From the NCBI GenBank assembly GCA_030690305.1, contig JAUYHB010000006.1, forward strand, positions 84,574-148,573: 64,000 bases of DNA, read 5' to 3'. This document shows positions 14,531 to 19,018 of the stretch, piece by piece. Position 1 is the first letter of the stretch; each line of letters starts with the position of its first letter. The notes under the pieces are model-generated. The model was given only the letters and a program-made list of their open reading frames with translations. It made no database searches and was not told the DNA's origin. The translations under genes were made by a program, and so were the position numbers. Origin of the DNA: a bacterium. Lineage in GTDB: Bacteria > Patescibacteriota > Minisyncoccia > Phycocordibacterales > JAGLPS01.

Positions 14531-14556
14531 AAGGCCAATCTACCTAGATTGGCCTT
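14531..14556. terminator. Hairpin terminator between convergent genes
   Basis: AAGGCCAAT-n8-ATTGGCCTT, with a T-rich tract on the minus strand. It overlaps the stop of the minus-strand gene. Confidence 0.45.
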
Positions 14557-15145
14557 GTAAGGCAAGCAACTCATCAAATGATGGAGGCTGCAAGGAGTTG
14601 ATTCTTTTCACTGAATCAAACAACTCATCACCGATTTGATGGGAATGATAAAACTCGTAATCTCTGATGCAGGAATCTTTCCTCATTTTCGACATTGCGT
14701 CTGGAAATTTCCTTCCCTCTTTCGGGCTAGAGGATTCCCTTTGCAGAAACCACTCTAAGCATGTGTTTTTGGGAGTTATAAAGTACCATGCGTCTATTCT
14801 TTCCACATTCATAGAACGAAGTTTTTCAATAATTGCCTTTCGTTCATGCAAGTACCCGTTCCATGTGTCCAAGATTAGAGTGACATCTTCCTGCTCAAGA
14901 TGTTTTTTCACCCGCTCCCACATCACTTTCATCCCGTAAAAATGGCCGCCGGTATACGGGTCAAGCCATACCGAACCGAAAAGTTCCATGAGAATTTTGT
15001 CTCTGCTCACCAAGATAATTTCAGGATTAACCAAGAGACACTTTTCACACAGAGTTGATTTCCCCGCGCATTGGGGGCCTATAGTTAAAATTACTCTTTT
15101 CAAGTGGCACCTCCTTTCTACCCCTACCCTAGCAAAAGCCCGCAC
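14540..15145 (-). CDS. P-loop NTPase/kinase-like protein (AAA_33/zeta-toxin-like fold)
   Basis: Walker A GPQCAGKST near the N-terminus, about 200 aa. No further family resolvable. Confidence 0.5.
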   Translation of the reverse strand: MRAFARVGVERRCHLKRVILTIGPQCAGKSTLCEKCLLVNPEIILVSRDKILMELFGSVWLDPYTGGHFYGMKVMWERVKKHLEQEDVTLILDTWNGYLHERKAIIEKLRSMNVERIDAWYFITPKNTCLEWFLQRESSSPKEGRKFPDAMSKMRKDSCIRDYEFYHSHQIGDELFDSVKRINSLQPPSFDELLALQGQSR

Positions 15146-15197: not shown

Positions 15198-15271
15198 TGC
15201 CGAATCGTCTAATGGTAGGACACATCCCTCTGGAGGATGTTATCTTGGTTCGAGTCCAAGTTCGGCAGCCA
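15198..15271 (+). tRNA. tRNA-Gln (anticodon CTG)
   Basis: Cloverleaf with U1:A72, G73 discriminator and encoded CCA. Anticodon loop CU-CUG-GA. Confidence 0.85.
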
Positions 15272-15326
15272 AGGTTGGAAGTATCGAGGCGACCTAATTT
15301 CCTCGAGAAACCACTTTTTCTGGCAT

Positions 15327-16034
15327 ATGCGTAATGAAAAAATAAATTCAAAGATTATTGCTCTCTGGAATAAGTATTTTAAGAATGATCCAGACGTGTA
15401 TGCGCCGCTTTTCTACGACGAGTTCAGGAAGGGCGGACTGCTGTTCGTCGGGATGAATCCGTCTTTCAGCGTGCGAGGATTCAAAACGATACTTCAGAAC
15501 ACCGAATATAAAGACATGGATCCGTCCACATTCTTTAAGTGGAGCAACATATCCGCGAACCCAGCACTGATCGACGATTGTGTTAAGGTAGAGAACTACG
15601 CGTACGCGAACTACTCGCTCTATTTTGGTCGTCCGGTAGAGATAGCCAAGAAGGTTGGGTTAGATTGGCAACACATCGATCTTTTTCTCTATAAAGAAAC
15701 CGCGCAGAATAACTTCATGGCTCGCATTACGAATAAAGAGAAGCTCAACCAGTTCGCTCTCGATCAGATCGCGCTCTTTGAAGAAGTCCTCACAAAGATT
15801 GAACCATGTTGCGTGGTGGTCACCAACGCGTTCGGATCGGAGTTATTACGGGACCATATCAAGAACGACCTATTGTGGGACGAGGAGTGCGGCTTCCATT
15901 GGTTCACCAAATCGGGCAAGAAAATACCGATGTTCTTTTCGTCAATGCTAAGCGGACAGAGAGCGCTTGATCGTTGGTCATATGAACGTTTGAAGTGGCA
16001 CATCGGGCAGGCAGTAAAAAAACAATTAATATGA
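15327..16034 (+). CDS. Uracil-DNA-glycosylase-superfamily-like protein (SMUG/MUG-like motif GMNPS), function unknown
   Basis: GGLLFVGMNPSFS resembles UDG motif 1 (GINPG/GMNPG). A C-terminal SMLSGQ resembles motif 2. First gene of a tight three-gene cassette, with ATGA overlap to the next gene. Confidence 0.4.
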   Translation: MRNEKINSKIIALWNKYFKNDPDVYAPLFYDEFRKGGLLFVGMNPSFSVRGFKTILQNTEYKDMDPSTFFKWSNISANPALIDDCVKVENYAYANYSLYFGRPVEIAKKVGLDWQHIDLFLYKETAQNNFMARITNKEKLNQFALDQIALFEEVLTKIEPCCVVVTNAFGSELLRDHIKNDLLWDEECGFHWFTKSGKKIPMFFSSMLSGQRALDRWSYERLKWHIGQAVKKQLI

Positions 16035-16762
16035 CGGGCTGGTATTCTATCACTCCCCAATATATAATCATTCAAAATGAAAAAGCGGCTCTCGCTTTGT
16101 TCTCTCCCGAATTTCTCGGGGCATTTGCGGGGGCCTTCTTCGCCTTCCTCTTCGGTGTCATTAGTTACCATCTTATAAAGAGATACGAACGTTTCATTCT
16201 GCATCGTAATGCGCTTGTTGGATTAGAGCGTCTATTGAACGAACACTTAGACATTATTGGCCTTAACAGGGCAACTGCGCTTAGTACTCAGCGCATCCTT
16301 GAAGCCCACCGTCTTACCCACAACCGTTTACTTGAGTTGTCTGTGAGGGAAGGGTTGGACACAGACTTGGGGAACTTGGATATTGCCAATCGGTACTTTA
16401 TCTACACGCGAGGAGTCCACCGAACGAATGTCGATACTCAATCTATGAATTACACTCTGACTAGGTTCGAAGATGTCATGATTGGCGGGAAACCGTTGGA
16501 AGCTGAGAATTGGCACTACATAACGGGTGCTTTCGCGCAGATTCCCGGGCATATGGATAAACTTGAGCGCGAGACAAAAGAAATTCTCTGTATCACTCGC
16601 ATCCACATTGCCCGATTGGCGAGAAAGGGCATCTGGTATGCAAATACACAAAAGGAGTGGAGTGTAGAAGTAACAGACGAGGAACTCAAAAAGGAAGTCA
16701 TGAAACTCGAGGAAGAAATCAGAATGGTTTCTGGCCAGCGACCCTCAATCACTAGGACATAG
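16031..16762 (+). CDS. Single-pass membrane protein with a helical cytoplasmic domain, function unknown
   Basis: TM helix FLGAFAGAFFAFLFGVISYHLI, then 200 aa with no recognisable family. Start overlaps the upstream stop, and the stop abuts the next start. Confidence 0.5.
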   Translation: MTGWYSITPQYIIIQNEKAALALFSPEFLGAFAGAFFAFLFGVISYHLIKRYERFILHRNALVGLERLLNEHLDIIGLNRATALSTQRILEAHRLTHNRLLELSVREGLDTDLGNLDIANRYFIYTRGVHRTNVDTQSMNYTLTRFEDVMIGGKPLEAENWHYITGAFAQIPGHMDKLERETKEILCITRIHIARLARKGIWYANTQKEWSVEVTDEELKKEVMKLEEEIRMVSGQRPSITRT

Positions 16763-17512
16763 ATGGCAAAAAATACTGAAAATAAAAAATGCATTCATTG
16801 TTTGCGAATCCCGCAGGAGATTACATTTGATCACGTAATCCCAAAATCCTGGTATTCGAAGATTACATCTAAGGATGCGCGCAAACCAAAAGCTCCGGCA
16901 TGTTTTGAATGCAATCAAAAATTGGGAAGGCAAGAGAAATTTTTATCCCATATCATGTGGATGTGTATGCCAGAGGCCCATCCTTTACGGGAAGAACTAA
17001 CAGAGAAGGTCTACAGAGCGTGTGGGATGGGACGCGATGGCAAACCTATTCCTGAACTTTCTAGTAAGGAAAGAGATGAACGAATAAAATATGCCAAACG
17101 GTTACTTGCTTCCACACGACCGGGTGATGATATTGAAGAAAAGAATCTTTTTCCCGGTTTTGGATTCCATGCGGGATATCCGAAAGAGATTCAACGCGCT
17201 ACGTTAATACCCGAAAACCTCGTTACTGAGGTTGCTTCAAAGGTTGTTAGAGGGATCGAGTATATTCAAAAAGGAAGCGAGAGATATGTTGAGGCGCCGT
17301 ATCGACTGGATGTGTTCTTTCCAAAGAAGACAACCGACTCTTCTCTTCAGGAAATCCGCGCTAAGTGCAGAGTATTCTCTGATGGCACCAACACGATCCA
17401 GAGAGGAGCTGATCCAGAAAAACCATTGGAACCGATTTACATTATTCGTCTATGGAATCAATGGGAAATTTGGGGTGTCATTATGCATGAGGAACGATAC
17501 AATAAGTTGTGA
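16763..17512 (+). CDS. HNH endonuclease domain protein with C-terminal domain of unknown function
   Basis: N-terminal CIHC...DHVIPKS...CFECNQ matches the HNH pattern (CxxC, DH, N, CxxC). About 190 aa of uncharacterised sequence follows. Confidence 0.65.
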   Translation: MAKNTENKKCIHCLRIPQEITFDHVIPKSWYSKITSKDARKPKAPACFECNQKLGRQEKFLSHIMWMCMPEAHPLREELTEKVYRACGMGRDGKPIPELSSKERDERIKYAKRLLASTRPGDDIEEKNLFPGFGFHAGYPKEIQRATLIPENLVTEVASKVVRGIEYIQKGSERYVEAPYRLDVFFPKKTTDSSLQEIRAKCRVFSDGTNTIQRGADPEKPLEPIYIIRLWNQWEIWGVIMHEERYNKL

Positions 17513-17896
17513 CCTAAGAGCGTCAGTGTCTCGTACGGAAAGCGCCTCAAGAACCCTTACGGTGTCTCACTGCTGGGGCACCAGACCTAAGAGGCCAGCC
17601 AAGTTGAGATAGGTTCGGAGTCCAGAGAATAATAAAAATGATACGCTGAAACTATGCCTTTATTATTTTATTTAATACTTGTTTGGATTTCTGAGAACGT
17701 AACTTTCAGTTGGGGTTGGTTTATTGTTGCCTTACTTTTTTCTTTAGGTAGAGCCAAAACTACATATAAATACAGATATACCAATAACCCTGATGAGGAC
17801 GAAGAAGAGGTTGAGGAATAATATCCGAGGCGCATCAAAAAGCCCTACAGGGCTTGATGGTAGAATTTACGAAACCGAGGAAGTTATCAAACTTAA

Positions 17897-18258: not shown

Positions 18259-18783
18259 ATGAATATAAATATGTCCGCCAAAGGCGGATCCGCCTCTGGC
18301 GGGAAAAAAAGTTCAACAATATTTCTTCAGGTAGTCGTTGTACTCATCGGCATCGTGGCGCTAGCCATTATGATTCGATTTCCCCAAACCGAAGGAAGGG
18401 CCGCAAACTTAGACCTGTTCAGCATTTACGCTGACCCGTTCATTGTGTATATGTACCTCGCGTCTATTGCGTTTTTTGTTGCGCTGTATCAGGCATTTAA
18501 ATTGCTCGGGTACATTGGAAAAAATAGGGTGTTCTCGCAAGCGTCCGTGAACACGTTGCGTACAATAAAATACTGCGCAATGATACTCATCGGCTTTTTT
18601 GTGGGGGCAGAAGGCTACATTTTTATTGTCTCACGCAAAGTAGAGGAGGACATTGCAGGTGGCGTGATGATGGGTGTTATCTTAATTTTTGTCTCAACTG
18701 TCGTTGCTACTGCCGCGGCCGTGTTTGAGCGAATGTTACAAAGCGCCGTCGATATAAAGTCCGAGAACGACTTAACCGTCTAG
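18259..18783 (+). CDS. DUF2975-like multi-TM membrane protein
   Basis: Four or five TM helices, about 170 aa, immediately upstream of a YozG-like HTH regulator, which is the usual DUF2975/XRE pairing. Confidence 0.55.
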   Translation: MNINMSAKGGSASGGKKSSTIFLQVVVVLIGIVALAIMIRFPQTEGRAANLDLFSIYADPFIVYMYLASIAFFVALYQAFKLLGYIGKNRVFSQASVNTLRTIKYCAMILIGFFVGAEGYIFIVSRKVEEDIAGGVMMGVILIFVSTVVATAAAVFERMLQSAVDIKSENDLTV

Positions 18784-18811
18784 TTCGACAAGCTCACTAT
18801 AAATAATTACT

Positions 18812-19018
18812 ATGGCAATCATCATTAACATCGACGTTATGTTGGCGAAGCGGAAGATGAGCGTCACCGAGCTTGCCGAGAAAGTCGGCATCACGATGGC
18901 CAACATTTCCGTGTTGAAAAACGGCAAAGCGAAAGCCATTCGCCTATCAACTTTGGAGGCAATTTGTAAAGCCCTGGATTGTCAGCCCGGAGATATATTG
19001 GAGTACAAAAAGAAATGA
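18812..19018 (+). CDS. XRE-family (Cro/C1, YozG-like) HTH transcriptional regulator
   Basis: 68-aa HTH (MSVTELAEKVGITMANISVLKNGKAKAIRLSTLEAICKAL). Confidence 0.8.
   Translation: MAIIINIDVMLAKRKMSVTELAEKVGITMANISVLKNGKAKAIRLSTLEAICKALDCQPGDILEYKKK

Follow-up and report, generated by a model that had tools for sequence, protein, structure and literature searches.

Three closely packed genes that follow a tRNA-Gln(CTG) gene raise the question of whether they work together as one system or have simply come to lie side by side. Together with the tRNA they occupy positions 15198–17512 of the window, that is, the whole 64,000-nucleotide (nt) stretch analysed here (contig JAUYHB010000006.1, positions 84,574 to 148,573 of the forward strand), which belongs to a Paceibacteria-like chromosome (Patescibacteria; Parcubacteria/Paceibacterota-type) in a metagenome-assembled genome. 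They encode a protein with a motif reminiscent of uracil-DNA glycosylases (UDG), a membrane protein and an HNH protein, hereafter g1, g2 and g3. An earlier note on this DNA had proposed an anti-phage module in which the glycosylase makes abasic sites and the HNH nuclease cleaves. The layout it described, a tRNA followed by three co-directional genes, with the ATG of g2 overlapping the stop codon of g1 as ATGA and a 0-nt spacer between g2 and g3, was confirmed with ARAGORN, Rfam and the open reading frames (ORFs). The antiviral side of the proposal stands to the extent that homologues of each of the three genes occur among defence genes, so that the defence flavour is real; the three-part unit, by contrast, is absent from independent loci. 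The three are unrelated genes that occur and move independently of one another, and with moderate confidence we read the 2.3-kb cassette as a small defence-type island of such independently mobile genes, in which g1 is a candidate antiviral glycosylase resembling the UDG-fold defence proteins Brig1, Brig2 and Brig3.

Searches with tblastn detected no homologue of g2 or g3 within about 6 kb of g1 in the 34 genome loci and further contigs. No homologue of g1 or g3 lies near the 46 loci of the g2 family, and neither g1 nor g2 is present at six other contexts of g3. The three families thus fail to co-occur (0/34, 0/46 and 0/6 loci), which contradicts the coupled module and is an outcome that the earlier note had itself named as refuting it. 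The only other trio, in the same g1-g2-g3 order, lies on a 2.3-kb contig (L094) with 88% nucleotide identity over 2.1 kb; this being a close relative, shared ancestry explains the recurrence, and the co-occurrence expected of a conserved three-gene system of glycosylase, membrane protein and HNH protein is not observed. Comparison with L094 revealed purifying selection on all three genes, with ratios of nonsynonymous to synonymous divergence of 0.06 (g1), 0.17 (g2) and 0.045 (g3), while the synonymous divergence of g1 (0.585) is about twice that of g2 (0.294) and g3 (0.342), which hints at a history of g1 distinct from that of the g2-g3 pair. Such unequal divergence within one cassette suggests recombination or separate acquisition.

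The spacing itself is only mildly unusual for the window, where the gap is ≤0 in 9 of 52 co-directional gene pairs and ≤10 nt in 21 of 52. Tight spacing being common in this genome, it argues for co-transcription, which is probable for g1, g2 and g3 at this locus, and not for a functional machine; in genomes as compact as these, tight packing beside a tRNA does not speak for a functional module. A single coupled system, in which g1 removes a modified base, the HNH protein cleaves at the abasic site or close to it and g2 regulates or anchors the pair, would account for the two consecutive gaps ≤0, somewhat unusual by the above count, and for the gene order kept under purifying selection in L094. 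Nevertheless, we consider it very improbable: synteny largely refutes it, its one recurrence needs nothing beyond common descent, the divergence of g1 departs from that of its neighbours, and the known Brig glycosylases act without a nuclease partner (PMC11078745).

Membership of g1 in the UDG superfamily is apparent from its predicted structure. The protein is 100% identical to the NCBI entry 'MAG: hypothetical protein U1D31_01945 [Patescibacteria group bacterium]' (g2 is likewise 100% identical to U1D31_01950), and scans against Pfam (none at E ≤1), NCBIfam, PHROGs and PADLOC gave no match. A longer mechanical ORF begins at 15237; the start was placed at 15327 because the longer frame overlaps the tRNA and all homologues begin at the methionine of the MxNxxIN sequence. 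The AlphaFold2 model, built with 59 homologues, has a predicted local distance difference test (pLDDT) score of 92.3 and a predicted template modelling (pTM) score of 0.89. When it was compared with the PDB by Foldseek, the top 50 matches all belonged to the UDG superfamily, the best being the Sulfolobus tokodaii family-4 UDG (4zbx/4zby). The structural-match values were 10.7 for the T. maritima family-4 UDG (1l9g), 10.0 for BdiUNG (5gn2), 9.9 for both UdgX and family 5 (2d3y), 9.6 for TDG, 8.7 for SMUG1, and 8.3 and 7.8 for MUG, and the first unrelated folds reached values of ≤7.2. The model is an alpha/beta fold with a central parallel sheet that can be superimposed on solved UDGs; between beta-1 and beta-2 it has an additional helical insert (residues ~49–110).

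Both motifs to which the earlier note had drawn attention are present and conserved. The first, GMNPS, likened there to motif 1 of MUG/SMUG, directly follows beta-1 (residues 38–42 in the model), where UDGs carry the GxxPx water-activating loop with its polar residue. Its residues G42 and N44 are invariant in 59 close homologues, as are F204, S206, M207 and G210. Among 150 diverse members of the family, at least 90% conservation was found for G42, N44, P45 and S46 of this motif (motif A), for H116, D118, L119, F120, R123 and Q127 after beta-2, for N167 and A168 after beta-3, and for M207 and G210 in the SSMLSGQR loop (residues 205–212), which corresponds to the SxLSG-like second motif of the note. 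In the model the conserved FFSSMLSGQR stretch (motif B) follows strand 198–205, a position that we take to be the site of the HPSPLS/NPSGLS loop of the UDG families. The only Pfam matches among the 150 members were four weak ones to DUF1643. The structure check on this protein thus gave a UDG-like fold with motif A in place and no sequence-profile link to the UDG families, so that membership rests on fold and motif position and not on similarity between hidden Markov models (HMM). At the level of the modelled fold, g1 is a divergent member of the UDG superfamily.

The family of g1 is large and scattered. Its close members form 325 clusters at 90% identity (conservation 45–90% identity), and the full HMM search retrieved 1,436 clusters at 50% identity (E ≤1e-30 for 419); yet a pattern scan of 185,579 species genomes located the gene in no more than 34. 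Twenty-one of these 34 loci belong to Patescibacteria or unclassified bins and one further contig was binned as Roseivirgaceae (44–84% identity for all 22), and the remaining 12 are distant (29–38% identity) and come from Bacteroidota, Ignavibacteriales, an archaeon and a Desulfobacteria bin. A distant homologue (26% identity, E 2e-16) resides on the conjugative plasmid pRUNSL03 of Runella slithyformis (L097, 31394–32164), just after a Dcm + MvaI/BcnI restriction-modification (R-M) pair and adjoining a cluster of genes for metallo-beta-lactamase (MBL)-fold hydrolases; it is labelled a hypothetical protein in RefSeq. The viral collections IMG/VR and INPHARED contained no relative of g1, g2 or g3. 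g1 is an accessory and mobile gene of patchy spread.

The neighbourhood of g1 differs in almost every genome of Patescibacteria. Immediate neighbours of its homologues include HamB (E 5.7e-276) together with HamA of Hachiman, PDC-S53 (E 0), PDC-S06/AAA_13, Mrr_cat + zinc-ribbon nucleases, PD-Lambda-3_A-like proteins, methyltransferases and recombinases. The 98 neighbours in 24 loci comprise four PDC-S06, four PD-Lambda-3_A, three mad3, two PDC-S53, two type IV restriction endonucleases and two PD-T4-3, in addition to methyltransferases and resolvases, all of these being raw counts given without a background rate. In six of the 24 Patescibacteria loci (L001, L004, L019, L021, L022 and L024) a zinc-ribbon-rich family of 365–426 amino acids (aa) that matches nothing in Pfam or PADLOC (cluster C1) directly adjoins the g1 homologue on either side, and a 148-aa PD-Lambda-3_A-like protein (C3) follows g1 or C1 in four loci. 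C1 and C3, neither of which is encoded in the window, may be recurrent island companions or, in some lineages, true partners of g1. In L004/L005 the g1 homologue adjoins DUF2726 and PIF1 helicase genes and lies ~3.5 kb from a pair resembling a diversity-generating retroelement (RVT_1 reverse transcriptase + bAvd).

The second gene encodes a single-pass membrane protein, as had been predicted: one hydrophobic segment (residues ~28–46) reaches a Kyte-Doolittle maximum of 1.95, an N-terminal hydrophobic segment is found in all relatives, and the sequence GAFFAF is invariant over 39 family members. No match to g2 was obtained in Pfam, NCBIfam, PHROGs, PADLOC or the PDB, and the plasmid search returned none for g2 or g3. 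Besides 29 close homologues, there is a wider family at 20–40% identity, represented by 46 metagenome loci, whose members often lie within R-M loci: between hsdM and hsdS/hsdR of type I operons (L054, L060, L063), elsewhere within type I clusters (L059, L093), or directly after type III-like N6_N4_Mtase + ResIII pairs or a ResIII-type subunit (L057, L072, L074, L085, L086). Others are found next to SMODS + S_4TM or next to UvrD and an XhoI R-M system. The distant members appear to form an undescribed family of R-M-associated accessory genes, and g2 itself would be an accessory protein of R-M and defence loci that is anchored in the membrane. The gene downstream of g2 homologues differs between loci, no common family being detected. 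Close homologues in L013, L050 and L049 share a recurring arrangement in which g2 is placed between genes for a 576-aa and a 154-aa protein, both devoid of a Pfam family; the block immediately follows a CBASS-like SMODS + S_4TM pair, a Peptidase_S24 gene and a methylase in L013 and L050.

In g3, C47, C50 and N51 of the N-terminal HNH motif are invariant and C10, C13, D23 and H24 are conserved in at least 90% of homologues, while the middle structural Asn of HNH is not conserved. Pfam HNH_5 matches with E 6e-5 and 23.3 bits, under its cut-off of 27.5, and the sole match in the PDB profile search was the HNH endonuclease 4h9d (residues 7–53, E 0.1). All that the Pfam, NCBIfam, PHROGs and PADLOC scans yielded for g3 were HNH matches below threshold. 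The AlphaFold2 model is one compact unit (pLDDT 91.1, pTM 0.88), for which Foldseek retrieved no significant match in the PDB (best E 0.055). The C-terminal domain of ~190 aa belongs to no Pfam or PHROG family and has no solved structural relative, in agreement with the earlier description of an unassignable domain behind an HNH motif. Only 32 homologues were found. One of them (L008) adjoins AbiEii, a helix-turn-helix (HTH) protein and a serine recombinase, another (L009) AbiTii and a TIR protein; those in L098 and L100 stand beside a 3-dmu-9_3-mt-like gene and DUF2975, divergent from their neighbours; that in L006 is at a contig end, and that in L095 (84% identity) has no g2 upstream. Defence genes (AbiEii, AbiTii, TIR) thus accompany g3 homologues in two of six contexts, a suggestive association that is weaker than that of g1. 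The protein is probably a stand-alone, metal-dependent HNH nuclease whose C-terminal domain would recognise the target; as a methyltransferase is never found beside g3, this may happen much as in a type IV restriction enzyme.

These contexts also bear on whether g2 and g3 constitute a two-gene unit of membrane protein and HNH nuclease in this lineage, with g1 as an independent neighbour. The 0-nt spacer, the retention of the pair in L094 at similar synonymous divergence (0.29 and 0.34, as against 0.585 for g1) and the close downstream gene that always accompanies g2 homologues (368 aa in L011, 154 aa in L013 and L049) all agree with such a unit. We nonetheless judge it unlikely, given that the downstream partner of g2 varies by locus with no detected family in common, that the g3 homologue of 84% identity lacks an upstream g2, that g3 is divergent from its neighbours in L098 and L100, and that none of the 46 g2-family loci has a g3 nearby.

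The features of the cassette and its immediate surroundings are listed in the table.

Table. Annotated features at the tRNA-Gln locus (window positions)
Feature	Position	Strand	Remarks
tRNA-Gln(CTG)	15198..15271	+	ARAGORN; Rfam tRNA 59.6 bits; left edge of the variable gene cluster
g1, 235 aa, UDG-superfamily-fold, candidate Brig-like DNA glycosylase	15327..16034	+	
g1 motif A, G42-M-N44-P-S46	15450..15464	+	directly after strand beta-1
g1 motif B loop, F203-F-S-S-M-L-S-G-Q-R212	15933..15962	+	directly after the last core strand
g2, 243 aa, single-pass membrane protein, uncharacterised family linked to R-M loci and defence islands	16031..16762	+	
g2 transmembrane segment, residues ~28-46, FLGAFAGAFFAFLFGVISY	16112..16168	+	hydropathy
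g3, 249 aa, N-terminal HNH motif and ~190-aa C-terminal domain	16763..17512	+	
g3 HNH core, C10xxC13...D23-H24...C47xxC50-N51	16790..16915	+	
AAA_33 P-loop kinase-like protein	14540..15145	-	divergent, other side of the tRNA; E 4e-10

The wider flanks of the cassette are ordinary on both sides: an alpha/beta hydrolase and an EamA protein upstream and, downstream, small ORFs for membrane proteins, a DUF2975 + HTH_26 pair, OmdA and an ABC-F ATPase; Rfam and folding of the spacer 17505–17650 gave nothing. Two other genomes (L018 and L020) likewise have a tRNA-Gln, 1.5–2 kb upstream of the g1 homologue, and variable genes of this kind may settle repeatedly beside this tRNA, but no integration signature is visible here. 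The small P-loop NTPase noted across the tRNA proved to be an AAA_33 kinase-like protein, which also matches a PHROG polynucleotide-kinase family (E 6.5e-6) and of which none of the related loci examined contains a homologue; its divergent orientation and its absence from all related loci led us to reject it as part of the unit. Downstream, 750 nt after g3, the DUF2975 membrane protein gene is followed by the Cro/C1-type HTH_26 regulator (18259–19018). A DUF2975 gene is also present near the g3 homologues of L098 and L099, so that the insertion site of g3 may be conserved relative to the DUF2975/HTH_26 pair.

Several findings weigh against an antiviral g1 in a mobile defence island. Pfam UDG (PF03167) matches neither g1 nor any of 150 family members, and PDB sequence and profile searches with g1 returned no UDG, chance coiled-coil matches only. 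The hhalign comparison of the g1 family with E. coli Mug, which places GLLFVGMNPSFS on Mug RVVFCGINPGLS (GINPG), spans 15 residues only and carries a 17% probability, and motif B is devoid of the His of UDG families 1, 3 and 4. At the locus itself, no integrase was found at the cassette, a search of the window for att-like copies of the tRNA 3' end and for other repeats gave nothing, and the cassette shows no compositional deviation. The neighbour counts of g1 come without a background rate, some g3 contexts are without a recognisable defence gene, and the likeness to the Brig proteins, discussed below, is drawn from published descriptions. Finally, distant g1-like genes in three Bacteroidota genomes (Sphingobacteriales; L037, L038 and L043, 33–38% identity) have a conserved chromosomal context, the same eight neighbouring genes being kept, including an ALMT/FUSC-like transporter gene next to the g1-like gene. 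A context so stable fits a housekeeping or repair role for that branch, in which the gene may be a fixed part of the chromosome, possibly serving repair, and not a gene of defence.

Extended to the whole family, the same argument would make g1 an ordinary base-excision-repair glycosylase, a lineage-specific substitute for MUG/SMUG, and the cassette a mere group of chromosomal genes that are unrelated and have no part in defence. The MUG/SMUG-like GxNPS motif, the strong conservation of g1 (45–90% identity), the Sphingobacteriales synteny and the unremarkable flanks (hydrolase, EamA, ABC-F) and composition of the window are all in line with this explanation. It is nevertheless improbable in our opinion: occurrence in 34 species loci is very patchy for a repair gene, the neighbourhood in Patescibacteria is nearly always different and dominated by defence, R-M and recombinase genes, and one homologue is carried by a conjugative plasmid.

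If g1 is a defence glycosylase, it would most likely act like Brig1, Brig2 and Brig3. By this analogy, a non-canonical, phage-modified base would be flipped from the DNA into a pocket formed after beta-2 (H116, D118 and F120) and beta-3 (N167), where F120 could stack on the base and N167 and D118 contact it. As in MUG, TDG and SMUG1, a water molecule placed by Asn44 in the GxNPS loop would serve to hydrolyse the N-glycosidic bond. The gap in the DNA would be filled by the inserted SSMLSGQR loop, possibly by way of R212. The resulting abasic sites would then block phage replication. These residue roles, including that of a catalytic N44, are inferred from positions in the modelled fold; the activity, substrate and antiviral role of g1 are in the same way predictions, as is any role of g2 and g3.

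Defence glycosylases (Brig1-3, Dag) have been recognised only from 2024 on, mostly via functional screens. The most valuable item of the locus is g1, as a candidate for a new, large family, for which no family model exists, within the known class of UDG-fold defence glycosylases. Should the assignment hold, a Pfam-less UDG-fold family of more than 1,400 clusters in defence islands would make that class substantially larger and would be a sign of hypermodified DNA in the phages that infect Patescibacteria, a group with a very small number of known defence systems and hardly any known phages (PMC12366544). The families of g2 and g3 are further uncharacterised candidates for defence-gene discovery. 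A bolder proposal, possible but distinctly tentative, would have g1 represent a very large UDG branch (>1,400 clusters at 50% identity, no family model) dedicated to antiviral defence, with MUG/SMUG-type Asn chemistry directed against an as yet undescribed base modification of Patescibacteria phages, and g2, as a membrane protein set within R-M operons, and g3, as an HNH nuclease with a novel reader domain, two further undescribed single-gene defence families, the HNH nuclease perhaps exploiting the abasic sites made by g1 in this lineage.

No named system corresponds to the combination of the three genes, PADLOC giving no match, which agrees with the earlier note. The HNH core of g3 (CxxC...DH...CxxCN) is common to PtuB of Septu, to PADLOC PDC-M01B and to McrA-type type IV enzymes; the PADLOC matches to PDC-M01B and PtuB are weak (E 5e-4 to 0.1) and cover residues 3–60 only, and neither a PtuA-like ATPase nor a partner gene of the Septu/PDC-M01 kind was found in the window or in homologous loci. 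The lack of an adjoining methyltransferase in every context is shared with modification-dependent or abortive-infection (Abi)-type nucleases. Genes of the g2 family resemble the accessory genes embedded in type I R-M operons, such as PrrC/RloC-type insertions between hsdM and hsdS, in their placement between hsdM and hsdS/hsdR or immediately after Mod/Res-like pairs, but g2 differs from them by the transmembrane anchor, by the absence of a nuclease or ATPase motif and by belonging to no described family; g2 in the window, unlike its relatives in R-M operons, adjoins no R-M genes.

Among the UDG families, MUG/TDG (family 2) and SMUG1 (family 3) share no HMM-level similarity with g1, which further differs from them by its helical insert (~49–110) and by the near-invariant D118 and N167, not typical of either family; the context of g1 is that of defence islands and not of the core genome. 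The closest parallel is with Brig1, Brig2 and Brig3, glycosylases of UDG fold that remove modified bases from phage DNA and are encoded in defence islands; the abasic sites have been shown to stall phage replication for Brig1 and Brig3 (PMC11078745; bioRxiv 10.1101/2025.10.29.685425; bioRxiv 10.64898/2026.02.25.707755). Set side by side with g1 by published description and not by sequence (PADLOC 2023 predates Brig1), they are, like g1, single proteins of divergent UDG-superfamily fold, annotated as hypothetical, with defence islands or mobile elements nearby; in the case of g1, homologues adjoin defence genes, counted with no background rate, and one is found on a conjugative plasmid. Differences concern the distribution of the g1 family, which is found mostly in Patescibacteria, and the presumed active site, g1 having the MUG/SMUG-type GxNPS Asn motif where the residues reported as important in Brig1 are Y121 and E147 (PMC11078745). 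On the other hand, the S. tokodaii family-4 UDG, reported as the best structural match of Brig1 (PMC11078745), also tops the structural matches of g1, and the chemistry proposed here for g1, excision of a modified base leaving an abasic site, would be the same as that of Brig1, Brig2 and Brig3.

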